Notes: generated from the sequence alone by a model not told the origin. DNA of 64,000 nucleotides from an uncultured Bacteroidia bacterium (GCA_902789395.1 CADANY010000014.1:11364-75363); one strand, 5' to 3'; positions 10,617 through 55,547 are shown, numbered from the stretch's first letter. Numbers and translations are program-made.

Positions 10617-10661
10617 AAAAGTATTATTTTTGCGCCGCTATATAATTATACACTATCAGAT

Positions 10662-10934
10662 ATGGAATTGAAAAACGCTGTCGCCGGGACCCTCGAGTCC
10701 GGTGATATCATGATCCAGATTTCCTCAGGGAGGGGACTGGAAATCGACCTCCAGAGCTCTGTCGCCGCCCAGTTCGGCTCTCAGATCAAGGCCGTCATTA
10801 CCGAGACGCTCAAGGGGCTCGGAATCGAAGATGCCGCCGTCAAGGCCGTGGACAAGGGAGCCCTTGATTGCACTATCCGCGCACGTGTAACTGCCGCCGC
10901 CGTCCGGGCGACGGGAAAAGATGTCTGGAAATAA
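10662..10934 (+). CDS. citD: Citrate lyase acyl carrier protein (gamma subunit)
   Basis: Motifs AGTLESGD (prosthetic-group Ser) and DKGALDCTIRARV. Confidence 0.95.
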   Translation: MELKNAVAGTLESGDIMIQISSGRGLEIDLQSSVAAQFGSQIKAVITETLKGLGIEDAAVKAVDKGALDCTIRARVTAAAVRATGKDVWK

Positions 10935-11824
10935 TGGAAAGATTACGCAGAACGATGATGTTCGTTCCGGGAAATAATCCCGGAATGATGGCCGATGCCC
11001 ACATCTACGGTCCGGATTCGATCATGCTCGATCTCGAAGACTCCGTGACCATGGCCGAAAAGGATGCCGCCCGGCTCCTGGTATATAATGCACTGAAATC
11101 CATTGATTACGGGACTACTGAAATGGTCGTCCGGATCAATCCGCTCAATACCCCTTACGGGAGAAAGGACGTCGAGGCCGTTGTCAAGGCGGGAGTCGAC
11201 GTTATCCGCATGCCGAAGACGGAGACAGCGGACGAAGTCCGTGAACTCGAGGCGGAAATTCTCAAGGTTGAGACGGAGATCGGCCGGGTAGGGGAAACAC
11301 GTATCATGGCGGCCATAGAGAGTGCACTCGGAATCCGGAACGCTTTCGAAATCGCATCCGCCTCTACAAGAATGATGGGTATTGCCCTTGGTGCCGAAGA
11401 CTACACGGCCAATCTGAAGACCCAGCGGACGCCGGGCGGAGCGGAACTGCTCCTGGCCCGTGAGACGATTGTCGTCGCCGCCCGCGCTGCAGGCATAGCC
11501 TGCTTCGATACGGTCTATTCGAACCTGGATGACATGGAGACCTTCCGCAAGGAGGTCGAACTGATCAAGACGCTTGGTTTCGACGGCAAGTCGATTATTA
11601 ACCCGCGCCAGATCGAGGTCGTCAATGAGGTATTCGCCCCTTCGCAGAAAGATATTGAAAAGGCGCTCCGTATTACGGCAGCTATCAAGGAGGCCCAGCA
11701 GCGGGGATCAGGCGTTATCGCAGTCAATGGCAAGATGGTTGACCGTCCGGTCGTGATCCGTGCTGAACGTACGATCGCGCTCGCCATCGCATCCGGTATT
11801 TTAAGCAAGGAGGAAGCATTATGA
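10934..11824 (+). CDS. citE: Citrate lyase beta subunit (citryl-ACP lyase)
   Basis: Motifs RRTMMFVPG, DLEDSV, VRINP, PKTE and FDGKSIINPRQI. The ATG overlaps the citD stop (TAATG). Confidence 0.95.
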   Translation: MERLRRTMMFVPGNNPGMMADAHIYGPDSIMLDLEDSVTMAEKDAARLLVYNALKSIDYGTTEMVVRINPLNTPYGRKDVEAVVKAGVDVIRMPKTETADEVRELEAEILKVETEIGRVGETRIMAAIESALGIRNAFEIASASTRMMGIALGAEDYTANLKTQRTPGGAELLLARETIVVAARAAGIACFDTVYSNLDDMETFRKEVELIKTLGFDGKSIINPRQIEVVNEVFAPSQKDIEKALRITAAIKEAQQRGSGVIAVNGKMVDRPVVIRAERTIALAIASGILSKEEAL

Positions 11825-13242
11825 GAAATACGAAAGTCGTTACCCTCGAAGAGGCCATCCGCCGCAGCGGACTCAAGGATGGCATGACCATCTCTTTCCA
11901 CCACCATTTCCGCGGTGGGGACAAGGTCGTCAATCTCGTCGTTGACAAACTGGCCGAAATGGGTTTCAAAGACCTGCACCTGGCCGCTTCCAGCCTCTCG
12001 GATGTCCATGCCCCGCTGATCGGACATATCCGTAACGGAGTTATCACGCAGATTTCCACTTCCGGTCTCCGGGGAGAACTCGCTAATGAGATTTCCCACG
12101 GCCTGATGGAAGAACCAGTCGTTTTCCGCTCCCATGGCGGGCGCGGCAGTGCGATCGCTTCAGGCGAACTCCATATCGACGTGGCCTTCCTGGGAGCATC
12201 GTCCTGTGATGCGCTCGGAAATGCTTCGGGCTGCCCTCGTTCGGAAAATGCGAAATCTATCTGCGGATCCCTCGGCTACGCCCTGCCGGATGCCCAGTAT
12301 GCCGACCATGTCGTCGTGATTACCGACGATCTGGTAGCTTATCCTAACGTTCCGAAGTCTATCTCTGCCTGCCAGGTTGAGTCGGTCGTCGTCGTTGACT
12401 CCGTCGGCGACAGCTCCAAGATTTCGTCCGGCGCGATCCGGGATTCCAAGAATCCCCGTGATATCCTCCTTGCCAAACAGGCAGCGAAGGTGATTATCAA
12501 CAGCGGTTATTTTGTAGACGGTTTCTCAATCCAGACCGGAACCGGCGGTGCATCGCTGGCTGCTGTCAAGTATATCCGCGAGAGCATGATAGAAAAAGGG
12601 ATCAAAGCTTCCTTCGCTCTCGGCGGCATTACCGCCCACATGGTCAAACTCCACGAAGAAGGCCTGATCGGCCGTCTCATCGATGTCCAGTCCTTTGACA
12701 AGGTCGCTGCCGAGTCGATTGCCTCCGACCAGTTCCATCAGGAAGTCTCCGCCGTTGAATATGCGAGCGCCGATCATGAAGGATCTGCCGTCCATGCCCT
12801 TGATATCGTCATCCTTTCCGCTCTTGAGGTTGATGTTGATTTCAATGTCAATGTCCTTGTCGGATCGGACGGAATCATCCGCGGAGCCATCGGCGGCCAC
12901 CCAGATACAGCCGAGGACAGCGCTCTTTCGATCATTGTATGCCCGCTCCTCCGGGGACGGATCCCGTGCGTCGTTCCGAAAGTGACGACCCTGATCACCC
13001 CGGGCGCCGGCGTGGACGTCGTCGTAACGGAGTACGGTATCGCGGTCAACCCGCGACGTCCCGAGATCGCAGAACGCCTGAAAGAAGCCGGATTGCCTGT
13101 TGTCGATATCCATGACCTGGCAGCCAAGGCAACCTCGATCATCGGTGTTCCGGACGCCCTTCCTTTCGGAGAGAAAGTGGTCGGTATCGTCATGGACCGT
13201 CACGGGAAGGTCCTGGATAAGATCCATAATATAGTGGATTAA
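11821..13242 (+). CDS. citF: Citrate lyase alpha subunit (citrate CoA-transferase)
   Basis: Motifs GMTISFHHHFRGGD, RSHGGR, QTGTGG, GAIGGHPDT and TEYGIAVNP. Confidence 0.95.
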   Translation: MRNTKVVTLEEAIRRSGLKDGMTISFHHHFRGGDKVVNLVVDKLAEMGFKDLHLAASSLSDVHAPLIGHIRNGVITQISTSGLRGELANEISHGLMEEPVVFRSHGGRGSAIASGELHIDVAFLGASSCDALGNASGCPRSENAKSICGSLGYALPDAQYADHVVVITDDLVAYPNVPKSISACQVESVVVVDSVGDSSKISSGAIRDSKNPRDILLAKQAAKVIINSGYFVDGFSIQTGTGGASLAAVKYIRESMIEKGIKASFALGGITAHMVKLHEEGLIGRLIDVQSFDKVAAESIASDQFHQEVSAVEYASADHEGSAVHALDIVILSALEVDVDFNVNVLVGSDGIIRGAIGGHPDTAEDSALSIIVCPLLRGRIPCVVPKVTTLITPGAGVDVVVTEYGIAVNPRRPEIAERLKEAGLPVVDIHDLAAKATSIIGVPDALPFGEKVVGIVMDRHGKVLDKIHNIVD

Positions 13243-13763
13243 TGGCGGTTACGCTGGAACAATTGCTGCAAAGCAGGGAAGAGAGACATCTGCACCAGAT
13301 GTCTCTCTTGCAATTGTATCCTGGGAGTACGCTGGTCTGTATGACCGTAATCATGCCCGGTCCCGTCAAGCGGGATTCCCGTTCCCTGACAGTGGCCGCA
13401 TCGGGTGAGAATGAAATGGAAAAAGCCTTTGAAGGACAGATCCGCTGGCATGAATCCCGGGACCTGGAGACCGGTTATGAGGCTTATTTCGTGACGGACG
13501 TTCCCCGTGACGAGGCCAAGCGGATCTGCTGCTGCATCGAGGATACGGCTCCGCTCGGCCGTCTTTTTGACCTCGACGTCATCGGTGAAGACGGGGCTCC
13601 TCTCAGCAGATCTGCCTATGGGGTATCTCCCCGCCGCTGTCTTCTCTGTGATCATGAAGCCCGCTACTGCATGCGCAATCATACGCATACATTGGAAGAA
13701 CTTCTGACAAAAATCGATGGAATGGTCACGAGTTTCAAAAAAGCGGATTACAAATCGAAATAA
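13242..13763 (+). CDS. citX: Apo-citrate lyase phosphoribosyl-dephospho-CoA transferase
   Basis: Motifs LLQSREER, PGPVK, TGYEA, GRLFDLDV and RRCLLC. Confidence 0.92.
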   Translation: MAVTLEQLLQSREERHLHQMSLLQLYPGSTLVCMTVIMPGPVKRDSRSLTVAASGENEMEKAFEGQIRWHESRDLETGYEAYFVTDVPRDEAKRICCCIEDTAPLGRLFDLDVIGEDGAPLSRSAYGVSPRRCLLCDHEARYCMRNHTHTLEELLTKIDGMVTSFKKADYKSK

Positions 13764-13789
13764 TTATTGCTTTATCAATAAAGATTGAT

Positions 13790-13797
13790 TACTTTTG
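13790..13797 (+). promoter_or_regulatory. Bacteroidota housekeeping -7 promoter box upstream of citC-citG
   Basis: TACTTTTG matches TAnnTTTG, about 50 bp before the ATG. Confidence 0.6.
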
Positions 13798-13847
13798 CGC
13801 ATCATATCAAGCTCTGACGTGACCGGGAGTATTGGGAAGTCGGCAAG

Positions 13848-15641
13848 ATGATGAAAACATACGGAAGATTTGAAATAGCGGAGATGCCGATGGGCTCTCC
13901 CCGTTTCCGCAACAAGGTGGAAGCATTTCTGAAAGCCAATGGACTGCGTCTCGATCCGTTGGATTTTTATCTTGCCGTAACAGATCCAGAAGGAAATATC
14001 GTCGCCGGTGCCGGCCTTTACGGAGATATCATCAAATGTGTCGCCGTCTCCGATGACGTCCGTGAAGAGGGCCTTGCGGGAACGTTAGTCTCAGAACTGG
14101 TTGCATCAGCTGCTTCCCAGGGGCTGTCAAACCTTAAAGTCTTTACAAAACCATCGAATCGCCAAGTCTTCGAATCTCTCGGTTTCCGGCAGATCGGAGA
14201 GGCTCCTGAAGCGATCCTGATGGAAAACGGCCATGGGCTGGCTGCCTATTGCGAGTATCTCCATAGCCTTCGTCGTCCCGGGAAAGCAGGCGTTATCGTC
14301 ATGCATGCCAATCCTTTCACGGTCGGGCATCTCTATCTGATCTCAGAAGCCTCGCGGAAAGTCGATTACCTTTATGTCATTCCGGTCCGGGAAGAAGGAA
14401 CGGATTTCAGTTATGAATCCCGGCGGACCATGATTGAATCGGCCCCGCTTCCCGGCAACGTGGCGCTCGTCCAGGGCAGCGGCTATACGGTCTCCGCAGC
14501 GACCTTCCCGACTTATTTCCTGAAAAATTTGGACGATGCCGCCCTGACCCAGATGCGGCTGGACCTTGATATCTTTTCCCGCCATCTTGCCCCGGCTCTT
14601 GGAGCGACAGTGCGCTTTGTCGGCTCGGAACCGGACGATCCGCTGACGGCGGCTTATAACCGGATGATGGAGGCCCTGCTTCCGGAAAGGGGAATCGACG
14701 TTTCCGTCATCGGGCGTCTTTGCGCCGAAGAAGGCCCCGTAAGTGCTTCTGCCGTGCGGTCTGCCCTTCGGGAAGGCTCATTTCGGCGGGCAGCAGAACG
14801 GGTCCCAGCGTCCGGATGGATGTATCTGACGGCTTTCCTGATGGAACGGTCGCTTCTTGCCGAGCTCGAAACGCCCCATAAACCAGGCCTTGTCGGTCCA
14901 GGGTCCCGAGGAAGCCACGAGGATATGGACATGGAACTCATGAGAAGGAGTATCCGGACCCTGCGGGAATCTTTCGAGCGTCATTTCGACCTTTCCGATC
15001 CTGTTTCGACAGGGAAAGCGGTCGAAGCTGACGTCCTTTCGGCTACGGGCGGAATCAATACCCACCGCGGTGCCATTTTCAGCCAGATTCTCGCGGCAAC
15101 CGCCTTCCTGCAACTTCTCGGCGGTTCGCAAGCATCTGATTCTCAGCTCCTTCTTGATTATTCTCTGGTAGAAATAAACCGGCGGAAAATCAATAACTTC
15201 TTGGCAGATAGGGATTTGGCCTCCACCCTCAAACAACGGATTGCAGAGCTGGCAGAAAGGGTGCAGCCCTCGTCGGATTCGCACGGCGGCCGTCTCGTTG
15301 CAAAGTATGGGGTAAAGGGGGCACTTGCGATAGCCCGGGAAGGATACGGGGTGCTTTTCCGGGAATGGCTTCCCCTCTACCGTTCTCTCGGTGGAGATCC
15401 TTACCGGAACCAGAAAACGCTGTTGAGAATCATGTCGGAACTGGACGATACCTGTATCCTGCACCGGGCCGGTCCAGAGAGGGCCCGGAACGTCAAGGAA
15501 GAGGCGGCCGAACTCCTGCTCCATTTCGATCCGGACAGGCTGAAAGAGATGGATGTGCGGTATTCCCGCGAGGGAATCTCTCCCGGCGGGGCCGCCGATA
15601 TGCTGGCTTTGACGATATTCATTGATTCGATGACTAGATAA
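13848..15641 (+). CDS. citC-citG: Fused [citrate lyase] ligase CitC plus triphosphoribosyl-dephospho-CoA synthase CitG
   Basis: N-terminal half has IIKCVAV, GVIVMHANPFTVGH, FPTYF, RFVGSEP and VSASAVR (CitC). C-terminal half has ELETPHKPGLV, GSHEDMD, GGINTHRGAIF and ISPGGAADMLAL (CitG). One continuous ORF. Confidence 0.88.
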   Translation: MMKTYGRFEIAEMPMGSPRFRNKVEAFLKANGLRLDPLDFYLAVTDPEGNIVAGAGLYGDIIKCVAVSDDVREEGLAGTLVSELVASAASQGLSNLKVFTKPSNRQVFESLGFRQIGEAPEAILMENGHGLAAYCEYLHSLRRPGKAGVIVMHANPFTVGHLYLISEASRKVDYLYVIPVREEGTDFSYESRRTMIESAPLPGNVALVQGSGYTVSAATFPTYFLKNLDDAALTQMRLDLDIFSRHLAPALGATVRFVGSEPDDPLTAAYNRMMEALLPERGIDVSVIGRLCAEEGPVSASAVRSALREGSFRRAAERVPASGWMYLTAFLMERSLLAELETPHKPGLVGPGSRGSHEDMDMELMRRSIRTLRESFERHFDLSDPVSTGKAVEADVLSATGGINTHRGAIFSQILAATAFLQLLGGSQASDSQLLLDYSLVEINRRKINNFLADRDLASTLKQRIAELAERVQPSSDSHGGRLVAKYGVKGALAIAREGYGVLFREWLPLYRSLGGDPYRNQKTLLRIMSELDDTCILHRAGPERARNVKEEAAELLLHFDPDRLKEMDVRYSREGISPGGAADMLALTIFIDSMTR

Positions 15642-15680
15642 TGCACTTATCATATAATTAACATTAAATCCAAAACTATT

Positions 15681-17921
15681 ATGGTTGAATTGATTCCTCA
15701 CGGAGTGTACCTTCTCGACGGACAGAAAATCGTGTCCGATCCTTCCGGGATGCCGGAAGCTGACGAAGCCCGTGAACAAACGATCACTTACGGAATTCTC
15801 CGCGCCCATGATGTCGATGGCGGCAAGGGTAAGAAACTGCGCATCCGTTTCGATGCCATGGTTTCTCATGACATTACCTATGTCGGCATCATCCAGACGG
15901 CCCGCGCCAGCGGTCTCGAGGAGTTCCCGATCCCGTATGCCATGACCAACTGCCACAACTCACTTTGTGCGGTAGGCGGAACGATCAACGAGGACGACCA
16001 TGTCTTCGGTCTTTCTGCGGCAAAGAAATACGGCGGTATCTATGTTCCTGCAAACCAGGCGGTTATCCACCAGTATGCCAGGGAAGCCCTGACTGCATGC
16101 GGAAATATGATTCTCGGCTCGGACAGCCATACGCGCTATGGCTCCCTCGGTAATATGGGTGTCGGCGAAGGCGGCGGTGAGCTGGTCAAGCAGCTCCTGA
16201 AAAATACCTGGGATATCAATGCTCCCGAGGTCGTCCTTGTCTGGCTGGAAGGGAAACCCCGTCACGGCATCGGTCCGCATGACGTGGCCATCTCCCTTGT
16301 CAAGGCCGTCTTCGAAAGCGGTTTCGTCAAGAACAAAGTCCTTGAGTTCGCAGGTCCTGGCGTTGCCGAACTGCCGATCGACTTCCGTAACGGCATCGAT
16401 GTCATGACGACCGAGACGACCTGTCTGAGTTCCATCTGGATCACCGATGACAAGGTCAAGGAATACTTCGAGATGCACCGTCGCCCCGAGGCTTACCGGA
16501 CCCTCGCTCCGGGCAAGGTCGCATGGTATGACAGCATGATCCGGATCGATCTCTCTACCCAGGAAAGCATGATCGCCCTTCCGTTCCATCCGTCCAATGC
16601 CGTAACGATCCATGAGCTCCAGGCGGATCCGGAAGGTGTCCTCAAGGCTGTTGAAGAAGATACGAAGAAACGTTTCGGCGACCGGGTCCAGGTCGATCTC
16701 CTTTCTAAGATCAAAGACGGAAAGGTCGTCGCAGACCAGGGTATCATTGCGGGCTGCTCCGGCGGTACCTATGACAACCTCTCCGAGGCCGCGACGATTC
16801 TCAAAGGCAAGTCCATCGGCAACGATTACTTCACGATGAGCGCTTACCCGCAGTCGACCCCTGTTTACCTTGCTACGACCCGCGGCCATATCGCCGAGGA
16901 GCTTCTCGAAGCGGGCGTTGTCATTAAGCCTGCCTTCTGCGGCCCTTGCTTCGGCGCCGGCGACGTCCCGTCCAACAACGGTTTCTCCATCCGGCATACG
17001 ACCCGTAACTTCCCGAACCGGGAAGGCTCAAAGCCCGGTCAGGGGCAGATTTCTCTCGTTTCCCTGATGGATGCCCGCTCGATTGCCGCAACGGCTGCTA
17101 ACGGCGGTGTCATCACGGCCGCGACTGACATCGAATACGAAGATACGCATAAGCCTTACACCTTCGATGACCGGATCTACAAGAACCGGATCTTCAATGG
17201 ATTCGGAAAGGCAGACCCGACTGTCGAACTTCGTTACGGACCGAATATCAAGGACTGGCCGAAGATGTATCCGATGGAGGAGAATATGCTGGTCGAGCTG
17301 GCCGCTGTCATCCATGACCCCGTCACGACGACGGATGAGCTCATACCTTCCGGAGAGACTTCTTCCTATCGTTCCAACCCGCTCAAGCTCAGTGAGTTCG
17401 CTCTGAGCCGCCGCGTCCCTGAGTACGTCGGTATTTCGAAGCGGATCCAGAAAGAGGATCTCGAGCGCCGCGCAGGGAATGTCCCTGAGCATGTTGCCGC
17501 CGCCCTGAAGGCCGTCGGTGCGTCTGCTGCCGATACTTCCTTCGGTTCCTGCGTCTTTGCCAATAAGCCCGGAGACGGATCCGCCCGCGAACAGGCTGCT
17601 TCCTGTCAGAAGGTGCTCGGCGGTGATGCGAATATCTGCTACGAGTATGCGACCAAGCGTTACCGCTCCAATTGTATCAACTGGGGAATCGTTCCCTTCA
17701 CGATCGCTCCCGAAACGGCGTTCGACTATGAGCCGGGTGACTTTGTTTTCGTCCCGGGAATCCGGAAGGCCATCCTCGGCGGTGCCGAAGAGATCGATGC
17801 CTGCGTTATCACCAAGGGAGACGTGAAACCGATCCACCTCTATTTCCAGAACCTGACCGCCGCCGAGCGTGAAATCCTCGCGGACGGCTGCCTTATGAAC
17901 TATTATAAAAATCGTAAATAA
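15681..17921 (+). CDS. acn: Aconitate hydratase (Bacteroides-type hydratase)
   Basis: Motifs HDITY, TNCHNSLC, GSDSHT, AGCSGG, CGPCFG, TTRNFPNREG and GDGSAREQA. Confidence 0.92.
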   Translation: MVELIPHGVYLLDGQKIVSDPSGMPEADEAREQTITYGILRAHDVDGGKGKKLRIRFDAMVSHDITYVGIIQTARASGLEEFPIPYAMTNCHNSLCAVGGTINEDDHVFGLSAAKKYGGIYVPANQAVIHQYAREALTACGNMILGSDSHTRYGSLGNMGVGEGGGELVKQLLKNTWDINAPEVVLVWLEGKPRHGIGPHDVAISLVKAVFESGFVKNKVLEFAGPGVAELPIDFRNGIDVMTTETTCLSSIWITDDKVKEYFEMHRRPEAYRTLAPGKVAWYDSMIRIDLSTQESMIALPFHPSNAVTIHELQADPEGVLKAVEEDTKKRFGDRVQVDLLSKIKDGKVVADQGIIAGCSGGTYDNLSEAATILKGKSIGNDYFTMSAYPQSTPVYLATTRGHIAEELLEAGVVIKPAFCGPCFGAGDVPSNNGFSIRHTTRNFPNREGSKPGQGQISLVSLMDARSIAATAANGGVITAATDIEYEDTHKPYTFDDRIYKNRIFNGFGKADPTVELRYGPNIKDWPKMYPMEENMLVELAAVIHDPVTTTDELIPSGETSSYRSNPLKLSEFALSRRVPEYVGISKRIQKEDLERRAGNVPEHVAAALKAVGASAADTSFGSCVFANKPGDGSAREQAASCQKVLGGDANICYEYATKRYRSNCINWGIVPFTIAPETAFDYEPGDFVFVPGIRKAILGGAEEIDACVITKGDVKPIHLYFQNLTAAEREILADGCLMNYYKNRK

Positions 17922-17927
17922 ACCATC

Positions 17928-19136
17928 ATGGAAAAAATCAAAATGACTACACCGCTCGTCGAGATGGACGGCGATGAAATGACCCGAATCCTTTGGAAGA
18001 TGATCAAGGATGAACTGATCCTTCCCTTCGTAGACCTCAAGACCGAATACTATGACCTTGGCCTCGAATACCGGGACAAGACTTCCGATCAGGTAACCGT
18101 TGATTCCGCCCTTGCGACGAAAAAGTACGGTGTCGCCGTCAAATGTGCGACCATTACGCCGAATGTCCAGCGTATGAGCGAGTACAATCTGCATGAGATG
18201 TGGAAGAGCCCGAACGGGACCATCCGTGCCATGCTCGACGGTACCGTTTTCCGTTGCCCGATCACGATCCCTTCGATCCATCCGGCCGTTAAGTTCTGGA
18301 AGAAACCGATCACGATCGCCCGTCATGCCTATGGCGATGTCTATCGTGACGTTGAGATCCAGACGACCGAACCCGGCGTCGCCAAACTCGTTTTCGAAGG
18401 GGAAAGCGGCAAGAGAGAGGAACTCGTAATCAATAAGTTCACCGGCCCTGGCGTCATCGAAGGCATGCATAATACCGATGCTTCGATCCGCAGTTTCGCG
18501 CATTCCTGCTTCAAATATGCCCTTGACATCAAGCAGACGATCTGGTTTGCTACCAAGGATACCATCTCCAAGAAATACGACGGCCGCTTCAAGGCGATCT
18601 TCGAAGAGGTCTTCCAGGAATACAAGGAGGCCTTCGACGCTGCCGGTATCGAGTATTTCTATACCCTGATCGACGATGCCGTCGCCCGCGTCATGCGCAG
18701 CGAAGGCGGTTTCATCTGGGCCTGCAAGAATTATGACGGCGACGTCATGTCCGATATGGTCTCTACCGCATTCGGTTCCCTCGCCATGATGACTTCCGTT
18801 CTCGTCAGCCCGGACGGCAAGTATGAGTACGAGGCCGCTCACGGTACCGTAACCCGTCACTACTACAAGTACCTGAAGGGAGAAGAGACTTCGACCAATC
18901 CGATTGCGACGATCTTCGCATGGAGCGGCGCTTTCCGCAAGAGGGGAGAGCTCGACAACCTTCCGGAACTGGTCAACTATGCCAATCAGCTCGAGGCCGC
19001 CTGCTTCGATACCCTCAATGAGGGCTTGGTCACCAAGGACCTCGTCAACCTGATGGAAGGAGTCGAGGCGAAGGCCCTCAATTCCGCTGATTTCCTCAAG
19101 GCCATCCGGGTCCGTCTCGAGAAACGTCTGAGCTAA
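17928..19136 (+). CDS. icd: NADP-dependent isocitrate dehydrogenase
   Basis: Motifs [31 protein letters not shown] and [11 protein letters not shown]. Confidence 0.97.
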
Positions 19137-19144
19137 TTCAGTAT

Positions 19145-20071
19145 ATGAAAATCGTTTTTCTCGATGCGGCCACGATGGGCACAACTCCGATGACGGCAAT
19201 TGCCGCCATCGGAGACTTTGTCTGCTATGATTCCTCGACGGCCGACGAGGCTAGGGAAAGAGCTCATGACGCCGATGTTGTGATCCTGAATAAGATCATC
19301 GTAGACAAGGCTTTCCTGGATGCCGCTCCGAAGGTGCGGCTGATTTGCGAGGCGGGTACCGGCATCAACAACATCGACGTGGATCTGTGTCGCGAACGCG
19401 GTGTAATCGTCCGGAATGTTGCCGGTTATTCGACCGATTCTGTCGCCCAGCTGACCTGGATGCACATCCTGAATCTTGTAGGGAATGCCTTCCACTATGA
19501 CCGTTACGTCAAAGACGGGCGCTATTCCGCCGGCAAGATCCATACGGATGCGGCCCATCCTTTCACGGAACTCGCGGGAAAAACGATCGGAATCGTAGGT
19601 ATGGGGGCGATCGGACAGAAAGTCGCTTCGATCGCCCGTGCCTTCGGTATGGAAGTTATTTATTTCTCGACGTCCGGTACTTCGCACTGCAAGGAGTATC
19701 CGTCCGTGTCTCTCGAAGAATTGCTCCGTCGGAGTGATGTCGTCAGCATCCATGCGCCGTATAACGCCAAAACCGCCGGTCTCATCGGGTATGAGCAGCT
19801 CAAGCTGATGAAACCGACGGCGGTTCTGGTCAATACCGGACGCGGGGGAATCGCCGTTGAGAAAGATCTCGTCCGGGCCATTGATGAGGAAATCATCGCC
19901 GGCATCGGAATCGATGTGTATGAAAGGGAGCCGATTCCTTTGGACCATCCCTATCTCCATTCCGCCCACCCGGAAAGGATTCTTCTGTCGCCTCATGTGG
20001 CATGGACCAGTAACGAGGCCCGTCAACGGCTTGCCGATGAAATGGCGGCTAATATCATGAAAGGTTGGTAA
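19145..20071 (+). CDS. D-2-hydroxyacid dehydrogenase (glycerate dehydrogenase-like)
   Basis: Motifs GIVGMGAIG, SIHAP, NTGRGG, DVYEREP and SPHVAW. Confidence 0.9.
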   Translation: MKIVFLDAATMGTTPMTAIAAIGDFVCYDSSTADEARERAHDADVVILNKIIVDKAFLDAAPKVRLICEAGTGINNIDVDLCRERGVIVRNVAGYSTDSVAQLTWMHILNLVGNAFHYDRYVKDGRYSAGKIHTDAAHPFTELAGKTIGIVGMGAIGQKVASIARAFGMEVIYFSTSGTSHCKEYPSVSLEELLRRSDVVSIHAPYNAKTAGLIGYEQLKLMKPTAVLVNTGRGGIAVEKDLVRAIDEEIIAGIGIDVYEREPIPLDHPYLHSAHPERILLSPHVAWTSNEARQRLADEMAANIMKGW

Positions 20072-21845: not shown

Positions 21846-21919
21846 TGACTCCAACAGGACTCAAACCTGTAACCTTTTGATCCGTAGTCAAATGCTCTAT
21901 TCAATTGAGCTATGGAGCC
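21846..21919 (-). tRNA. tRNA-Arg (anticodon ACG)
   Basis: Minus strand GGCTCCATAGCTCAATTGAATAGAGCATTTGACTACGGATCAAAAGGTTACAGGTTTGAGTCCTGTTGGAGTCA folds as a cloverleaf with anticodon arm TTTGA-CTACGGA-TCAAA. Confidence 0.95.
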
Positions 21920-21948
21920 ATTTCGGTGCCGACGTAGCGGCGACCTTT

Positions 21949-22329
21949 TTATTCTTCAGCTTCGGCTTTGCGAACGTACTTTCTCTCCTTGATACGTGCC
22001 TTCTTACCGGAGAGGTCACGGAGATAGAAGATGCGAGCCCGACGGACTTTACCGTACTTGTTCACTTCGATGCTGTCAATGAACGGGGACTGATAAGGGA
22101 AGATTCTTTCGACACCGATTCCACCGGAAACTTTGCGTACGGTGAAGGTCTTCGTAAAGGCATCCTTGCCCTTCGTCTGGATGACGACTCCTCTGAATTT
22201 CTGAAGTCTCTCCTTGTCACCTTCTTTGATCCGGTAGGTAACGGTGATCGTATCACCCGCCTTGAAATCCGGATATTTCGCGACTTTTTCGTTCTCAAAA
22301 GCCTGCTCTGCAATTTTGATCAAATCCAT
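21949..22329 (-). CDS. rplS: 50S ribosomal protein L19
   Basis: Motifs [24 protein letters not shown] and [10 protein letters not shown]. Confidence 0.98.
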
Positions 22330-22439
22330 TTCTTTCGTCTTTTAATGCAACTTTACGCTAACTTTGAAACGATTCGTAAGAGGTTGCTCGTTTTTTCGGA
22401 CTGCAAATATACGGATTATTTTTGAAACTCCAACTTTTT

Positions 22440-45981: not shown

Positions 45982-46347
45982 CTAGATGCCTAAGACCGTT
46001 GCGGGAGGGATACGAAGATTCTGGACCATTTTCCTGGCCTGCTTCAAGGTAGGCTCCGATTTTCCGGAAAGAATTTCACTGATCTTTGATTGATGCATGC
46101 CCAGAAGAGAGGCCAATCCGGATTGAGAAAGCCCCATCTCGTACATCCTTAACCTTAGGATATCCGGAAGAGTGGGTTTCTTGATCGGGAAATGAATGTC
46201 TTCATAATCGGCTGCAAGATTGGACAGAAGATCGAGTTCTATACTGTTTCTGTCATCAGAAGGAGTGCTGTCGTCGACGATTTTCAGCAATTCCTCTATG
46301 CGGGCCATGGTTGCTGCATACTGTTTTTCGTTCTCAATCTTTGCCAT
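45982..46347 (-). CDS. higA: HigA-type HTH antitoxin
   Basis: KIENEKQY...ELDLLSNLAADYE, then an XRE HTH (LSQSGLA...ISEILSGK). Confidence 0.9.
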   Translation of the reverse strand: MAKIENEKQYAATMARIEELLKIVDDSTPSDDRNSIELDLLSNLAADYEDIHFPIKKPTLPDILRLRMYEMGLSQSGLASLLGMHQSKISEILSGKSEPTLKQARKMVQNLRIPPATVLGI

Positions 46348-46348
46348 T

Positions 46349-46651
46349 TCAGATATCCTTTATTTGTCTTTCCGTCAGACCGTCATATTCTTTATGAGTA
46401 CCGATGAAACGGATATATACCATTTTGATCCGGAACAGAACAAGGGTTATTAACCTGTAATCGTTCCCTTTAATGTTGAAAACAATTCTTTTATTCCCGA
46501 CATTATCAGCTGAGTTGAAAGATCTTTTGACATCGGAAAAGTTCTCCCATTCAGCAGATTCCGTTTTATGGTACCATTCTTCCAGTGCTGTTTCAGCATC
46601 TGCATGTTTCGTATAAAAGGCGACCAAAGTCTTTCTGGCGATAATTCTCAT
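46349..46651 (-). CDS. higB: HigB (RelE superfamily) toxin
   Basis: MRIIARKTL...LEEWY...VFNIKGNDYRLI...IRFIGTHKEYD; toxin precedes antitoxin. Confidence 0.92.
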   Translation of the reverse strand: MRIIARKTLVAFYTKHADAETALEEWYHKTESAEWENFSDVKRSFNSADNVGNKRIVFNIKGNDYRLITLVLFRIKMVYIRFIGTHKEYDGLTERQIKDI

Positions 46652-46707
46652 AGTCTTTTGTTTGGTATGCAAATGTAGCGAAATAATCTGAATTTTAAAA
46701 AAATATT

Positions 46708-46870
46708 CTAAAAATTAGAAAACTCTCCTTCTTTCAATAAGTTCGAATCTTTCGCTATTCTTCTTGTTCCGAACTCTATGAACCGTACGGTTACGATGCC
46801 GGCATCGGGATCATCGTCGATTACCGTGCCGTCTCCGAATACGGGATGATGGACCCGAGCACCCGCCCCT
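46708..46870 (-). pseudogene. Gene remnant resembling a PcrA/UvrD C-terminal Tudor-like domain
   Basis: A frame without a start codon reads GARVHHPVFGDGTVIDDDPDAGIVTVRFIEFGTRRIAKDSNLLKE, similar to G.RV.H..FG.G.V...V.F. Confidence 0.35.
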
Positions 46871-47633
46871 CCGTCGTCGGGACGGCGGACACCTGCTCCT
46901 CGGTCATAACCCTTAGATACGTACGCGTTGCAAGCATACTGCGAAGGTATACTTTTTTCGGTCCACTTGTTAAGAATTCCGCGGGTCGCCGATCATACTG
47001 CATTCCTTCATGGCATAAGTTCTGCGAAGCTTGTTGCGGTCTGGTTCCGTTAGGAAGCGGACCGCATTGTCTTACGACAAGCTTGCTGTTTTATTGTCCT
47101 GCGAACTCTCAACATTATTTTTGTGGCCCACATCCGTTTTTTGCAATACTCCGCATCGTATGTGAGAAACATTTTGTATATTTGCAATTGTCGGGAATCG
47201 GCCTAAACCCGAGTGACCGATGTACATAATGCGATGAAAGTGTTTGCTTTTATCCTGTAATTCGAAATCTGGTAAATTTTTAGTGCAGGGATAAGACAAA
47301 TGGTTCATCACCTTGTATGGTTTCATGTGCCTTTCAAGGCATATCTCCATACGGGTGTGGAGTATTGTTTTATTGGCACTAAGGCTTACCAGAGCCCCGA
47401 ATACAATAAAATCAAATGCTCCACACTTTCTTTATTGTAACTCCTTCTTGGGGCGGAAGGCGACAGGTTTACTAAGGCAAAATGACGTTTCCGACGATTC
47501 GGAATAATTCTTTTCAACAGTTGACTGATTTACAATTGTTTGCTTATTTGTTTTCATAATTAATATCAAAGATCCTTTATGAGTATTTAATGGACCGTAA
47601 TAATTTTTCAAAATGCACTGATCAATTTCATAT

Positions 47634-48002
47634 ATGGCGGATTATATATATTTCAAATCACGAGATGAGCTTTTGCGCTTTAACACGAGTGCAATTGTAT
47701 ATTTCGAAGCTATGGGGAATTTTACTAAGATAATCCTTGCCAATGGCTTTGAGGGGCATGTTTGTATTAATCTCGCCAAAATGCAGGAAAGGCTTACTCA
47801 CAGACTTGAAGAGAAAGCTAAATTATTTGTGCGTGTGGGTAAAAGTCATATCATCAATGTCACATATCTTTTACAGGTCATACCTCTTCGACATAAACTC
47901 GTTTTGAGTGATCAAAAGTCTTTCTTGTATGAATTGTCGATCTCGAAGGAAGCTCTCAGATCATTTATGGATATTATTATTGAATCGAAATCGAGCAAGT
48001 AA
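47634..48002 (+). CDS. Stand-alone LytTR DNA-binding domain protein
   Basis: Motifs IVYFEAMGNFT and FVRVGKSHIIN; no receiver domain. Confidence 0.85.
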   Translation: MADYIYFKSRDELLRFNTSAIVYFEAMGNFTKIILANGFEGHVCINLAKMQERLTHRLEEKAKLFVRVGKSHIINVTYLLQVIPLRHKLVLSDQKSFLYELSISKEALRSFMDIIIESKSSK

Positions 48003-48697
48003 TGGAGGTAATTATTGGAAGAGAAGCTAGGGTACCTAACCCCAGATTATGTTTAAAGATTGGCAATAGTGCCAAATTCATAGGAAACCCCGGTAGCGTT
48101 CCTAAAACGGTCAGTCGGAATCATTGTCAGTTAGAGATAATGGATGACGGTAAGATGAGGGTAAACAATATCTCTGACCAAAATACCCTGTTCGTAAACG
48201 GGACAGAGTATAAAACAAAGCTTATTACAAAAGATGATTTCATCCAACTTGGAGCAGATCGGTTTAATCTGGACATCCCAGCCATTCTTAAAGTTTTGGC
48301 TAGTGATAATGCACAACCTAAAACTTATAAGATTTCCCATTTACGACATATTTGGGAGGATTATACGCAAGCGAGATTGGATATCCAGATTCATGAGAGG
48401 AAGGTTAATGCCCTAAGTGCTATACCCGGAGTAATCTCAATGATTTCCATTGCCCTGAGTTTTATTGATGGATTACGTGCTGTTTTTATAAGTGTGGCTG
48501 CGATATTCGCCTTGATTTTTGCGTTAATACGGATGAAAAATGCAGGGAAAGTTCCTCTCAAGCAAAAAGAACTAGAAGACTGTTTTCAAGATGAATATGT
48601 TTGTCCGAATTGCAAGCATTACCTGGGTTACAAGAGTTATAAGCTAGTATTAAAAGATGGTGGATGTCCGTGGTGCAAAGTCAAATACACGGAATAA
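48002..48697 (+). CDS. FHA domain protein with TM hairpin and C-terminal Zn ribbon
   Basis: FHA motifs IGR, VSRNH and FVNG; two hydrophobic segments; CPNC...CPWC. Confidence 0.85.
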   Translation: MEVIIGREARVPNPRLCLKIGNSAKFIGNPGSVPKTVSRNHCQLEIMDDGKMRVNNISDQNTLFVNGTEYKTKLITKDDFIQLGADRFNLDIPAILKVLASDNAQPKTYKISHLRHIWEDYTQARLDIQIHERKVNALSAIPGVISMISIALSFIDGLRAVFISVAAIFALIFALIRMKNAGKVPLKQKELEDCFQDEYVCPNCKHYLGYKSYKLVLKDGGCPWCKVKYTE

Positions 48698-48779
48698 TCC
48701 TCTCATTACGTACATTATCGAACCTTTTCATTGTTTAGTGATTAATTAGATTGTATTTTGGACACAAATCAGAATTACC

Positions 48780-49007
48780 ATGGCAAAAGATCCCAATGTC
48801 TTACATGAAGCTGATCTGATACAAGTTTTTGATGAAACAGATGATCTCGTGCAGGTGTTAGGTGTTGTCCCCTCTGAAGAAGATGAGGAGATTCCCGTAC
48901 AGTCCGTGGAACTGGGAGATGATTCATCTGTCTTCATTGACGTTGAAGAGGATAACATAGTCTCAGATTCTTCGGACTTTATAGATTCTTCTGAACAACA
49001 ATGCTGA
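48780..49007 (+). CDS. Small, highly acidic hypothetical protein
   Basis: 75-aa Asp/Glu-rich ORF, co-oriented within the operon. Confidence 0.5.
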   Translation: MAKDPNVLHEADLIQVFDETDDLVQVLGVVPSEEDEEIPVQSVELGDDSSVFIDVEEDNIVSDSSDFIDSSEQQC

Positions 49008-49037
49008 TGTTTCTTCTGATGTAGATGTTATTGAAGG

Positions 49038-49760
49038 ATGAGATCTTTCTTACTCACATTGCTCCTGACCTTTATATGCACGCTGGCCCTTTCCCAGAAT
49101 GTATATTTGGTCGCTGTCGGAATAGCTGATTATCCGGGAACTGATAGTGATTTGGTTCTACCTGTTGCAGACGCATCGGCTATTGTCGATTTGTACAAAT
49201 CCAACAAATCAGCTCAGACATGTTTGCTTAGTAATAGCAATGCTACCAGGAGAAGTATTATTGAAACAACCAAAGCCCTTTTCTGTCAAGCCCGTTCCAA
49301 CGATATTGTAGTATTATTTTTCTCTGGGCATGGATATCCCGGTGGCTTTATGGCATATGATCAGAAGCTAGACTATGCTGATGTCAAGAGTATCTTTTCC
49401 GCTTGCAAATCCAAACACAAGATGGTATTTGCTGACGCATGTTTCTCTGGTTCCTTTAGAGACGTAAAGAGTGAGAAACAGAAGTTGAATGCAGCGTTTG
49501 ATGGCAACGTGATGCTCTTTTTGTCATCTCGGCATAATGAAACATCTATTGAAACGCCCAGTATGAAGAATGGTTTCTTCACAACATGTCTGCTCAGGTG
49601 TCTCAAAGGCGGGTCAGATTATAACAAAGACCGCGTCATTACAACAAAAGAATTGTACACTGGTGTTAGTAAAGGGGTAATACAACTATCCGATGGAAGG
49701 CAGCACCCTGTTATGTGGGGTAGTTTTAATGATGATATGGCTGTTTTAAAATGGCAATGA
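49038..49760 (+). CDS. Caspase family (peptidase C14, metacaspase-like) protein with signal peptide
   Basis: Motifs VGIADYP, FFSGHG (catalytic His), ADACFSG (catalytic Cys), SSRHNETS and QHP; hydrophobic N-terminus. Confidence 0.9.
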   Translation: MRSFLLTLLLTFICTLALSQNVYLVAVGIADYPGTDSDLVLPVADASAIVDLYKSNKSAQTCLLSNSNATRRSIIETTKALFCQARSNDIVVLFFSGHGYPGGFMAYDQKLDYADVKSIFSACKSKHKMVFADACFSGSFRDVKSEKQKLNAAFDGNVMLFLSSRHNETSIETPSMKNGFFTTCLLRCLKGGSDYNKDRVITTKELYTGVSKGVIQLSDGRQHPVMWGSFNDDMAVLKWQ

Positions 49761-50314
49761 GTGAACGTATGAATACAATTAAAATCAAGTGCCCAAATTG
49801 TGGCGCTATTCTATTAGTCCAGGATAACCCCTCAAATCAGGGGAAAAGCGTCCGTTGTCCGGCTTGCAAAGATAGGCACAAGTTCATCGAATTCAAGTTG
49901 ATTAAACCTGTTTTTGAAGAGGATAAGACTTGTATTGGACAAAGTCTCCCCAATGAAGACAGGACTCGGCTTCCGAACATGCCCGTATCCACCATAGGAT
50001 ACCTTGTGAATGAGACCGATAATCAAAAGTATTCTTTGGTCGAAGGTGTTAATCTAATAGGCCGGAAAACATATCAACAGGCTCCGCTCGCCAGTGTTCC
50101 TATTTTTACTGATGACAGAGGCTTCAGCCGTAAACATATGTTTATCGAGGTGACAAAAGGCGCGGATGGAATTATTCGTCACTTTGCGTATAATGCATAT
50201 AATAAAAACGAGACAAAAGTAAATGGGTCACTTTTAGTTGAGGGCGATAAGGTCATTTTACATAGTGGTGACCGAATTGAATCGTCACGAACGACTTTAT
50301 TATTCAAAATTTAG
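49757..50314 (+). CDS. Zn-ribbon plus FHA domain protein
   Basis: N-terminal CPNC...CPAC; FHA motifs LIGRK, FSRKH and NETKVNG. Confidence 0.85.
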   Translation: MSERMNTIKIKCPNCGAILLVQDNPSNQGKSVRCPACKDRHKFIEFKLIKPVFEEDKTCIGQSLPNEDRTRLPNMPVSTIGYLVNETDNQKYSLVEGVNLIGRKTYQQAPLASVPIFTDDRGFSRKHMFIEVTKGADGIIRHFAYNAYNKNETKVNGSLLVEGDKVILHSGDRIESSRTTLLFKI

Positions 50315-50327
50315 CTTTGTATTCGTT

Positions 50328-51257
50328 ATGAAGATTGAGGCCAAATACTTGTCTATACACGAATTAGGTCAACGGAGTAACCAGGAAGATAGTATCTTTC
50401 CTGCCATTGGTAATATAATCCCACATAATGATTTGTTCATCTTATGTGATGGGATGGGTGGTCATGCCCTAGGTGAAGTCGCCTCTCAAACTGTATGTGA
50501 TGCTCTCAGCGAATATATCCATTCTCATCCTAACGCTGATTTTGAGTCTGCGTTAAGTTATGCATATGATGCTCTAGATGCCAAAGATTTGGATGCCGAG
50601 AAAAAGATGGGGACTACATTGACGCTGGTTAAATTCGAGGCAGAGGGTTGCATCGTTGCACATATCGGCGACAGCCGTGTTTATCAGATTCGACCTTCAG
50701 AGAAGAAGGTTGTATTTGTGACTAAAGACCACTCTTTAGTCAACGATCTTGTAGATTGTGGGGAACTCACTCCGGAAGAAGCAAAACATAGTTCCCAAAG
50801 GAACGTGATAACCCGTGCCATGCAACCGCATCAGGATAGGCGCACTAAGGCAGACGTGTCCATCCTGACTGACATCAAGAAGGGTGACTATTTCTATATG
50901 TGCTCTGATGGGATGCTGGAGATCAGTGAGGACCAAGATATTATCAACGTCCTCTCCATGAATAAGACAGACGAGGAAAAGATTGCGATTTTGAGAAGGG
51001 TCACAGAAAACAATAATGACAATCATTCAGCTCACCTAATTCATATTACCGATGTGAATGATTCACCTTTTGATTCCTCAATGCCGAAGCTCAATAAAAA
51101 GTCATTTTGGCATCTGATTCTTCCTGTAATCATAACTATTGTTTTATTCGCTTTAGCTATCCTGCTTCTCCCTCGACATAAGAAATCACTTGACGAGCCG
51201 CTTAACATAGGGACGTTGACCGACACAACGCAAAATGAACTGGATATTGTACCATAA
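50328..51257 (+). CDS. PP2C/PPM-family Ser/Thr phosphatase with C-terminal TM
   Basis: Motifs RSNQED, CDGMGG, MGTT, HIGDSRVY, TKDHS, NVITRAM, MCSDG and DNHS. Start placed at the ATG at 50328. Confidence 0.95.
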   Translation: MKIEAKYLSIHELGQRSNQEDSIFPAIGNIIPHNDLFILCDGMGGHALGEVASQTVCDALSEYIHSHPNADFESALSYAYDALDAKDLDAEKKMGTTLTLVKFEAEGCIVAHIGDSRVYQIRPSEKKVVFVTKDHSLVNDLVDCGELTPEEAKHSSQRNVITRAMQPHQDRRTKADVSILTDIKKGDYFYMCSDGMLEISEDQDIINVLSMNKTDEEKIAILRRVTENNNDNHSAHLIHITDVNDSPFDSSMPKLNKKSFWHLILPVIITIVLFALAILLLPRHKKSLDEPLNIGTLTDTTQNELDIVP

Positions 51258-51354
51258 CAATAATATCAAAAATGTATAGTCCTGATTGTCGTATTATTTG
51301 ATCTGCAAAAGGATAATATAACCGAGTTATTCATTTTTTTCTGAAAACATAACA

Positions 51355-52263
51355 TTGATAATTATGAAAATCGTTGACGAATCCACTATTATCTCCCATC
51401 ATGGAGAAACCCCCGAAAAGAAAGTAAAAGCAGAACAACCGAATAACAATTATTTTTGGCGCGGCGTAGTTATTGGTGGCGTACCTGGTTTGCTGTTGGG
51501 TTCTGCCGATACAGTGTTCTCTTCCATTCATTCCTCTGTTGTTAGTACCGAAGAGGCTGCTGAGATTGAGGAGATTGACGAAGTCGCCGTACTTAAAGAA
51601 GAAGTTATTGCTCTTAAGGAAGAGATCTCTGAACTTAAGGAAGACCTTAACGCGATTCAAAACGGTAATCACGTTCCCAGCATTGGTGAAACTGTTGATG
51701 TCGCGCATGACGTTAATGACGACATGCCTTTCTCTGAGGCTTTTGCTGCTGCACGTCATGAGGTCGGTCCTGGAGGTGTGTTTATCTGGCATGGTAACGT
51801 GTACGGGACTTATTATGCCAATGAGTGGAATAACATGACCGACGAACAAAAAGCGCAATACTCGCAAGCCGTCCACAACACCAATTATAATGAAGACTAT
51901 TCGCAGACTAGCCATAATAGTTCAGGTAGTAGTGATTATCAAGAAGTTTCTCATGAAGATAGCGGTATCAAGGTCCTAGATACAGAAACCGTTGAAACCG
52001 AGGATGGCGTAATCAATGTCGCAAAGGTTGAGATAGATGGCCATTATGGAGAGATCTACGATTTGAATAACGATGGGACTCCGGATGCAGCCCTTATCGA
52101 TTCTAATGACGATGGCTTACCTGATATTGCAATGATGGATGATAATGGTGATGGCGCTATTGATGAGAACGAGGTTTATTATGATCCGAATCTCCAATTA
52201 GATGCGCTTTATGAAGATATGCCGGATTATTCCAACGATGCGGATGCGTCCAGTTTTGTTTGA
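51355..52263 (+). CDS. Membrane-anchored acidic protein with coiled coil and DxDxDG (Ca-binding-like) repeats
   Basis: Glycine-rich TM segment; coiled coil; FSEAFAAARHEVGPGGVFIWHG; DLNNDGTPD, DSNDDGLPD and DDNGDGAID. Confidence 0.7.
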   Translation: MIIMKIVDESTIISHHGETPEKKVKAEQPNNNYFWRGVVIGGVPGLLLGSADTVFSSIHSSVVSTEEAAEIEEIDEVAVLKEEVIALKEEISELKEDLNAIQNGNHVPSIGETVDVAHDVNDDMPFSEAFAAARHEVGPGGVFIWHGNVYGTYYANEWNNMTDEQKAQYSQAVHNTNYNEDYSQTSHNSSGSSDYQEVSHEDSGIKVLDTETVETEDGVINVAKVEIDGHYGEIYDLNNDGTPDAALIDSNDDGLPDIAMMDDNGDGAIDENEVYYDPNLQLDALYEDMPDYSNDADASSFV

Positions 52264-55544: not shown

Positions 55545-55547
55545 GAT

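Follow-up and report, generated by a model that had tools for sequence, protein, structure and literature searches.

The subject of this analysis is a citrate lyase gene cluster in a 64,000-nucleotide stretch of the genome of an uncultured Bacteroidia bacterium (GCA_902789395.1, CADANY010000014.1:11364-75363); this whole stretch is referred to below as the window, and positions are counted from its first letter. In this cluster, citD-citE-citF-citX-citC::citG-acn-icd (10662-19136), the genes for an acyl carrier protein (ACP)-dependent citrate lyase and its accessory enzymes lead directly into those for an aconitase-family protein and an isocitrate dehydrogenase (IDH). The lyase, aconitase and IDH very probably constitute a single pathway: oxaloacetate + acetate <-> citrate <-> isocitrate <-> 2-oxoglutarate + CO2. 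The seven genes are best read as one operon specifying this as a coenzyme A (CoA)-independent pathway. As for the direction, we infer, with confidence that is evenly balanced, a net flux toward 2-oxoglutarate in which the lyase takes the place of citrate synthase.

The seven genes, all on the plus strand, were identified with NCBIfam and Pfam profiles, with scores given here in bits against the curated cut-off. citD (10662-10934; TIGR01608, 106.7 vs 63.5) codes for the ACP or gamma subunit of the lyase, citE (10934-11824; TIGR01588, 462.2 vs 443.4; Pfam HpcH_HpaI) for the beta subunit, i.e., citryl-ACP oxaloacetate-lyase, citF (11821-13242; TIGR01584, 684.9 vs 501.45) for the alpha subunit, i.e., citrate:acetyl-ACP transferase, and citX (13242-13763; TIGR03124, 161.1 vs 105) for the holo-ACP synthase (phosphoribosyl-dephospho-CoA transferase). 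CitF and CitE are 59% and 52% identical to their E. coli counterparts, and Ser13 of CitD, in the motif AGTLESGD, matches the prosthetic-group serine of E. coli CitD and is invariant in the four aligned sequences. The first-pass annotation of the window had listed citC and citG as though they were separable; they are instead parts of a single fused open reading frame (ORF) of 597 amino acids (13848-15641), with GNAT and citrate lyase ligase regions followed by CitG. The CitC half (acetate:SH-citrate lyase ligase, residues 22-332) passes TIGR00124 marginally (264.1 vs 262.1). The CitG half (triphosphoribosyl-dephospho-CoA synthase, residues 331-593) matches PF01874 (183 vs 27) and falls under the NCBIfam equivalog cut-off (134.8 vs 272), and is thus divergent. 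Beyond the fusion lie acn (15681-17921) and icd (17928-19136), the latter coding for a homodimeric eukaryote-type NADP-IDH (NF006156, 639 vs 335; TIGR00127, 539 vs 397). The junctions along this string measure -1, -4, -1, 84, 39 and 6 nt, the ATG start of citE overlapping the citD stop codon (TAATG), so that the earlier description of seven co-oriented genes with gaps below 90 bp matches the ORFs. Profile scans of the window likewise agree that citrate synthase, oxaloacetate decarboxylase, CitAB and any transporter are missing from the cluster, and no citrate transporter is encoded between 8 and 25 kb of the window. The G+C content of the cluster (0.54-0.56) equals the genomic value, with no trace of recent acquisition.

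The acn product, a 746-amino-acid Fe-S hydratase of the aconitase family, is of the YbhJ/PRK11413 type: its match to NF008503 (1179.9 vs 641) spans residues 1-746 and the protein shares 54% of its residues with E. coli YbhJ, while the mitochondrial-like aconitase profile TIGR01340 gives it 111.9 bits against a cut-off of 825. It had previously been taken for the aconitase of the Bacteroides acn-icd kind; this identification does not hold, as the protein belongs to a different subfamily, of which B. thetaiotaomicron has no member (NF008503). Alignment with pig aconitase shows that the protein retains all three cysteines of the Fe-S cluster, as well as residues corresponding to Ser642, Arg644, Arg447 and Arg452; the motifs GSDSHT, CSGG, CGPCFG, RNFPNREG and GDGSARE have their counterparts in the Asp165-Ser166-His167, Cys358, Cys421/424, Arg447/452 and Ser642/Arg644 regions of the pig enzyme. 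Since these active-site residues are kept and an IDH gene follows 6 nt downstream, aconitase activity is presumed, and this is the natural reading of the protein. No functional study of the YbhJ/PRK11413 subfamily was found in the full-text literature, with subscription journals outside its coverage. Gut and rumen metagenomes contain thousands of protein clusters that are near relatives of the window protein (at least 88% identity among the matches listed), and such near relatives carry only the label 'hydratase' at NCBI. In E. coli K-12 (800.7-805.8 kb; L146), ybhJ stands beside ybhH, ybhI and ybhD—coding respectively for a PrpF-like isomerase, a DASS 'putative tricarboxylate transporter' and a LysR regulator—in a layout that looks like an aconitate or tricarboxylate utilisation locus.

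Relatives of the arrangement were drawn from a scan in which each prokaryotic species was represented by one genome, and in which at least 588 stretches carry a relative of the aconitase gene; the best 80 of these, 83-96% identical to the window acn, were compared. They come from Cryptobacteroides, Prevotella (including P. merdae), Hallella faecis, Muribaculaceae and many rumen and gut metagenome-assembled genomes (MAGs). citC::citG stands directly ahead of acn in 78 of the 80 loci and all seven genes follow the order of the window in 58, most of the others being cut by contig ends; a single alignment spans both the CitC and CitG halves in 73 of 79 related loci. Median gaps along the operon are 12, 109, 15, -29, 30 (citCG-acn) and 41 nt (acn-icd). 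The flanks vary: a 2-hydroxyacid dehydrogenase gene is the sole recurrent neighbour (20/80, often convergent), acetate kinase, FeoB, a phosphomutase and others flank a few loci each, and no transporter, regulator, sensor kinase or oxaloacetate decarboxylase is conserved in them. Likewise, gltA, the citrate synthase gene, lies within 10 kb of acn in none of the 80. As the citC::citG-acn junction recurs in 78 of 80 species-level loci with unrelated flanks, the arrangement is far beyond chance. In about seven loci (L043 and L045 among them) and in a congener of the window's host (G149), citDEFX is detached and citCG-acn-icd is still joined; acn-icd of the window type is almost never seen without citCG. 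Thus, the earlier proposal that citCG-acn-icd forms one unit receives good support from the comparison, as does the one that lyase rather than citrate synthase partners acn-icd, given the conserved adjacency and the absence of PF00285, the citrate synthase family, from the genome. As a side observation, the parts of the module differ in their divergence: in the nearest relative (L035), CitX and CitC::CitG are 77% identical to those of the window as against 96-99% for CitE, CitF, Acn and IDH, and in the congener CitCG is 47% identical as against 89% for Acn. This faster evolution of CitX and CitC::CitG suggests relaxed constraint or segmental replacement.

It may be argued that an acn-icd pair has simply come to lie next to a cit operon of the fermentative kind, the two being independent neighbours; the promoter-like box between citX and citC::citG in the window and the detachability of citDEFX in some genomes would be in keeping with this. 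Such a meaningless adjacency is hardly credible, given that the citCG-acn junction is preserved in the loci counted above with a median gap of 30 nt and no promoter box, and that window-type acn-icd rarely, if ever, stands alone. Moreover, other acn and icd genes have been joined, independently, to a second type of lyase. This distant CitDEF type, whose CitF is 46-49% identical, was found in other Bacteroidales families when 401 genomes of the order were searched for CitF; only two genomes in that sample have the window-type lyase, and hence it offers no usable baseline for the latter. In the second type, the order is citD-E-F-(X)-G-C, with citG and citC as separate genes. In 7 of its 19 loci (L129, L136, L137, L139, L141, L142 and L143), AcnB with a monomeric IDH (PF03971) or AcnB with a dimeric IDH is encoded directly upstream of citD, and in two more another aconitase-family gene adjoins the lyase genes, accompanied in one of the two by a monomeric IDH a short distance away. 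Aconitase and IDH isozymes that are not orthologous have thus been enlisted by citrate lyase on more than one occasion, a hallmark of a functional pathway and not of a frozen accident. A third tier of CitF-like proteins (PF04223, 450-486 bits, well under true CitF) occurs in about 150 of the 401 sampled genomes.

The remainder of the host genome gives the module its metabolic setting. In the assembly around the window (2.66 Mb, 98.6% complete), the citrate synthase profile PF00285 has no match, and 13 of 14 control genomes do match it. KorA, of the 2-oxoglutarate:ferredoxin oxidoreductase, is not detected by TIGR03710, the sole POR_N protein being a pyruvate:ferredoxin oxidoreductase of 1184 amino acids, and no 2-oxoglutarate dehydrogenase was found in the genome. 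There is no paralogous second aconitase or IDH, LeuC being the only other aconitase-family protein, and tblastn of the genome found none of SucCD, GltB, a CitA/DpiB-like kinase, YbhH or YbhI. Only three genes belong to the HMGL family, coding for LeuA, a CimA-like protein and an OadA-like carboxyltransferase. The CimA-like gene has NF042433 as its best family (600 bits) and is wedged between leuD and leuB, a leu-operon context that argues for its being a citramalate synthase, with a Re-citrate synthase as the less likely reading of its sequence; the OadA-like gene lies on contig C5, unlinked to the cit operon. With no PF00285 citrate synthase, KorA or other aconitase or IDH, the cit-acn-icd module is, as far as the gene families allow it to be read, the only recognisable route to 2-oxoglutarate in this genome. 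The ammonia assimilation effected by glutamate dehydrogenase (GDH) requires 2-oxoglutarate, and the genome encodes two GDHs, one of them NADP-specific. It also encodes fumarate reductase, FumB, AspA and a DcuB homologue.

The first-pass annotation had named a citrate synthase and a citrate transporter elsewhere in the genome as what would speak against a synthetic lyase. The genome-wide search for an si-citrate synthase that it proposed came out negative with PF00285, while a single permease of the DASS/CitMHS superfamily, of unassigned specificity, is present. This permease is encoded on contig C5, is 23% identical to CitT and was found in a search that did not extend to the 2HCT and TctA families. 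Its gene is far from the cit cluster, flanked by two genes for peptidase-like lipoproteins, with no hint of citrate.

How the module is distributed relative to the other sources of 2-oxoglutarate was examined in 151 genomes of the window's family, 97 of them high-quality, and in carriers of the module, 50 of which were scored for citrate synthase and 53 for KorA. A true CitF occurs in 3 of the 151 family genomes, and the eukaryote-type IDH in the same three and in one genome with citrate synthase. Citrate synthase itself is present in 12 of the 151 (8%), which is 12 of the 148 non-carriers; in the one such genome examined (G029), gltA is paired with a prokaryote-type icd. Among the carriers, citrate synthase is missing in 43 of 50, and in these acn-icd would be orphaned without the lyase, their only citrate-forming or citrate-consuming partner, a point that also tells against a meaningless adjacency. 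A strict anti-correlation of gltA with citDEF next to acn-icd, as had been predicted, is rejected, since the 7 of 50 carriers with citrate synthase are not below the family background. KorA shows a different pattern. It is present in 139 of the 151 family genomes (92%), including 92 of the 97 high-quality ones, and missing in 36 of 53 carriers (uncorrected Fisher p ~6e-18); within the window's genus, it is missing in both carriers and present in 6 of 7 non-carriers. Both citrate synthase and KorA are missing in 28 of 50 carriers. The complementarity between KorA and the module is strong but descriptive.

A further observation comes from Prevotella merdae, where the module occurs together with a citrate synthase. 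Its gltA (L121; G596:C2, around 225 kb) adjoins an NADP-specific gdhA, with a group II intron reverse transcriptase nearby, and its acn-icd sit in the cit cluster, apart from gltA-gdhA, in a genome whose remainder was not searched for further copies. The location of gltA beside gdhA, with acn-icd in the cit operon, suggests that acn-icd run oxidatively in this organism.

In the synthetic direction, the pathway would be set up by CitG and CitX, which would put the 2'-(5''-phosphoribosyl)-3'-dephospho-CoA arm on CitD, and by CitC, which would acetylate this arm once, at the expense of acetate and ATP. CitE would then condense acetyl-S-ACP with oxaloacetate into citryl-S-ACP, and CitF would exchange the citryl group for a new acetyl from free acetate, thereby releasing citrate. 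The YbhJ-type aconitase and the NADP-IDH would convert citrate to 2-oxoglutarate, which the NADP-GDH would draw on to glutamate, recycling the NADPH from the IDH step. The net reaction would be oxaloacetate + acetate + NH4+ -> glutamate + CO2, and the saving relative to citrate synthase would be the thioester, i.e., about one ATP. Several considerations favour this direction: the module stands in for citrate synthase and KorAB, which are the two anabolic sources of 2-oxoglutarate known in Bacteroidales; it lacks the genes for uptake, decarboxylation and sensing that are typical of fermentative cit operons; its hosts are ammonia-assimilating, saccharolytic organisms living in 50-100 mM acetate; and the pairing of NADP-IDH with NADP-GDH would be redox-balanced. 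The oxidative operation suggested for P. merdae points the same way. In rumen Bacteroides and Prevotella, KorAB is established as an anabolic 2-oxoglutarate synthase (work attributed to Allison and co-workers), and free acetate is abundant in both rumen and gut. Of the two options that the first-pass annotation had left standing, i.e., a lyase run synthetically or a funnelling of plant-derived aconitate and isocitrate into cleavage, the first fits better, with no conserved transporter, regulator or decarboxylase and with KorAB missing from most carriers, and its stricter form, an outright replacement of gltA, falls away.

Several points weigh against the synthetic direction, and in part against the pathway as drawn. 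The equilibrium constant of citrate lyase is about 0.3-0.9 M, and the lyase step taken alone favours cleavage: with 80 mM acetate and K = 0.4 M, citrate would reach around 0.2 times the concentration of oxaloacetate. The overall reaction to glutamate is exergonic, as GDH pulls it; the citrate-forming step, for its part, would be feasible only on account of the pull by IDH and GDH. The main weakness is that citrate would then be micromolar and the flux kinetically demanding, requiring high enzyme levels or high affinity. We are not aware of any case in vivo of an ACP-type citrate lyase acting anabolically. The aconitase activity of YbhJ-type hydratases, including their substrate specificity, is presumed from sequence. 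A DASS/CitMHS-superfamily transporter is encoded elsewhere in the genome. Citrate synthase is present in 7 of 50 carriers and KorA in 17 of 53, so that the module is no strict replacement of either, and the absence of citrate synthase from the others is no enrichment, the enzyme being rare in the family anyway. Further, the carriers are mostly MAGs from several families, and the co-occurrence counts ignore phylogeny. Finally, the same reactions run in the catabolic direction would also account for both the gene content and the KorA complementarity.

In this reverse operation, glutamate would yield 2-oxoglutarate via GDH or a transaminase, the NADP-IDH would subject it to reductive carboxylation under the CO2-rich conditions of the rumen, aconitase would form citrate, and the lyase would cleave this to acetate and oxaloacetate, the latter undergoing reduction to succinate or decarboxylation to pyruvate. 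We regard such a pathway of glutamate and 2-oxoglutarate catabolism as unlikely, even as it has several features to commend it: the lyase is known from textbooks as a cleaving enzyme; GDH and IDH would again be redox-balanced; the genome encodes a second GDH, which is not NADP-specific, along with fumarate reductase, FumB, AspA and the OadA-like carboxyltransferase; and, with neither KorAB nor 2-oxoglutarate dehydrogenase, it would be the only means of disposing of 2-oxoglutarate. The sporadic distribution in 3 of 151 family genomes looks like that of an accessory trait, and the KorA complementarity would be matched just as well by taking KorAB for the normal catabolic exit. Against these features, none of the 80 loci has a glutamate or 2-oxoglutarate transporter or a regulator with the module; the oxidative deamination by GDH is strongly unfavourable; and Prevotella, Muribaculaceae and Cryptobacteroides are mainly saccharolytic ammonia assimilators, and KorAB is regarded as anabolic in rumen Bacteroides and Prevotella. 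Moreover, genomes devoid of both citrate synthase and KorAB would be left unable to make glutamate.

The module might also be seen as a utilisation operon for citrate, aconitate or isocitrate, with the transporter encoded elsewhere, part of the substrate being cleaved, with oxaloacetate going to succinate, and the rest being converted to 2-oxoglutarate. This draws on the orthology of CitDEF, CitX, CitC and CitG with the fermentative enzymes (seen, e.g., in the identity of CitF to that of E. coli), on the presence of the CitT-like DASS/CitMHS-superfamily permease and the DcuB homologue, on the E. coli precedent of ybhJ adjoining a putative tricarboxylate transporter and a PrpF-like isomerase, and on the occurrence of citrate and aconitate in forage. 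The permease gene, however, lies between genes for peptidase-like lipoproteins far from the cluster; a CitA-like kinase, YbhH and YbhI are absent from the genome; the 80 loci show no conservation, beside the module, of a transporter, a sensor kinase, a regulator or an oxaloacetate decarboxylase; and the loss of KorAB in carriers would be left unexplained. In light of this, and within the scope of the transporter search given above, we think an operon for imported tricarboxylates quite improbable.

For those carriers that retain KorAB (17/53) and have fumarate reductase, a further scheme can be drawn, in which the module would close a full reductive tricarboxylic acid (TCA) loop: oxaloacetate -> succinate -> succinyl-CoA -> 2-oxoglutarate -> isocitrate -> citrate -> oxaloacetate + acetate. 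Were this very unlikely scheme to be true, an ATP-independent, ACP-type lyase would be the cleaving enzyme, CO2 would serve gut and rumen Bacteroidales as an electron sink from which acetate is made, and the module could be viewed as a reversible valve set by acetate, CO2 and the redox state.

As to transcription, Bacteroidetes-type -7 boxes (TAnnTTTG) were sought within 120 nt upstream of genes. One such box read from the sequence, TATTTTTG (10625..10632, plus strand), lies 30 nt upstream of citD and is likely the main promoter of the operon; a second, TACTTTTG (13790..13797, plus strand), lies 50 nt upstream of citC::citG and is a possible secondary promoter for citCG-acn-icd. None is present directly ahead of the window acn. 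In related loci, the strict motif occurs upstream of citD in 21 of 58, with near-variants being common, and almost never ahead of internal genes. The box suggested earlier before citC is thus present in the window, and a comparable one precedes citCG in just 6 of 60 related loci. The absence of an evident terminator within the cluster, also noted earlier, agrees with our scan, which placed no terminator-like site in any of its intergenic gaps and whose number of sites equals the shuffle expectation. The counts from a sigma-70 promoter scan likewise equal the shuffle expectation, that consensus being uninformative for Bacteroidetes promoters. An Rfam scan of 8-23 kb gave one tRNA and no riboswitch or leader. 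In other lineages, the 5' leader of citD has hairpins, one in loci L057, L060, L066, L068, L071, L072, L074, L077, L081, L083 and L090, and another in L087, L088 and L104, with apparent compensatory changes in their stems (e.g., CCCTG...CAGGG vs CCCGC...GCGGG); a conserved ACACTGATGAC comes after the first-group hairpin. Both are lineage-specific and not found in the window, and could be regulatory RNA elements or operators.

The co-oriented string does not end at icd, so that the cluster extent given earlier is right for the seven genes and wrong in its end: it continues with genes for a D-2-hydroxyacid dehydrogenase (19145-20071, plus strand; NF006263, 386.9 vs 389; 8 nt past icd), a DUF362 protein and one more ORF. 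The dehydrogenase, by its distribution, is a lineage-specific neighbour that may not belong to the pathway; it might be a reductase of 2-oxoglutarate or of glyoxylate/hydroxypyruvate. Further along, the tRNA gene detected by Rfam (21846-21919, minus strand; RF00005, 64.5 bits) overlaps the annotated start of a 182-amino-acid ORF (21877-22425), which, if real, probably starts further downstream. Separate from the cit cluster, the G+C content falls to 0.38-0.41 in an island at positions 46000-56000, compared with about 0.55 in the other parts.

The module bears on the glutamate synthesis of organisms that are widespread in gut and rumen. In over half of the carriers that were scored, no alternative way to 2-oxoglutarate is seen, and automatic reconstructions would call these glutamate auxotrophs or gap-fill a citrate synthase that they do not have. 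If the lyase forms citrate, a textbook fermentative enzyme would gain a new physiological role, the acetate of the habitat would be put to an ATP-saving use, and another near-equilibrium TCA enzyme would be seen to run against its textbook direction; if the module runs in reverse, it would represent an undescribed route of glutamate and 2-oxoglutarate breakdown. In either direction, it would provide the first functional context for the YbhJ hydratase family. Cultured carriers, namely Prevotella merdae Marseille-P4119 and Hallella faecis CLA-AA-H145, make the module directly testable.

The component families are all already known. No description of a cit-acn-icd operon in Bacteroidales was found in the full-text literature, with the coverage given above. 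As far as that search shows, what is undescribed is the seven-gene architecture, the tying of a citC::citG fusion to acn-icd, the link between YbhJ and citrate lyase, and the distribution in genomes that lack citrate synthase and KorAB. Known fermentative lyase operons comprise citCDEFG with citS-oadGAB-citAB in Klebsiella pneumoniae, citCDEFXG-citT with dpiAB in E. coli and citMCDEFXG-citP in lactic acid bacteria. The window module shares with these the set of CitD, CitE, CitF, CitX, CitG and CitC, at or near equivalog scores; it differs from them in having no transporter, oxaloacetate decarboxylase or two-component regulator, in the window or the 80 loci, and in its citC::citG fusion, its appended acn and icd and its host without citrate synthase. 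With the E. coli ybh locus, it shares an orthologue-level relative of ybhJ (54% over the full length), which neighbours lyase and IDH genes here as against isomerase, DASS transporter and LysR genes there.

A functional parallel might be drawn with Bacteroides fragilis, for which Baughn and Malamy are said to have described, in 2002, an operon acnA-icd-citrate synthase for the oxidative branch of the Krebs cycle. Both group an aconitase and an NADP-IDH with a citrate-handling enzyme, and the presumed purpose of both, in anaerobes whose TCA pathway is branched, is to supply the 2-oxoglutarate from which glutamate is made. The third enzyme, however, is an ACP-dependent lyase complex in the window instead of a citrate synthase, and the aconitase is of the YbhJ/PRK11413 and not the mitochondrial-like type. 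More broadly, a reversible citrate synthase operates in the reversed oxidative TCA cycle of Desulfurella and Thermosulfidibacter, and ATP-citrate lyase forms citrate in Desulfobacter postgatei. The window enzyme differs from these in being, as predicted from its genes, an ACP-dependent citrate (pro-3S)-lyase (EC 4.1.3.6) with no CoA or ATP turnover. What it would share with them is the concept of a near-equilibrium citrate enzyme whose direction is set by metabolites, with ATP being saved or gained in the process.

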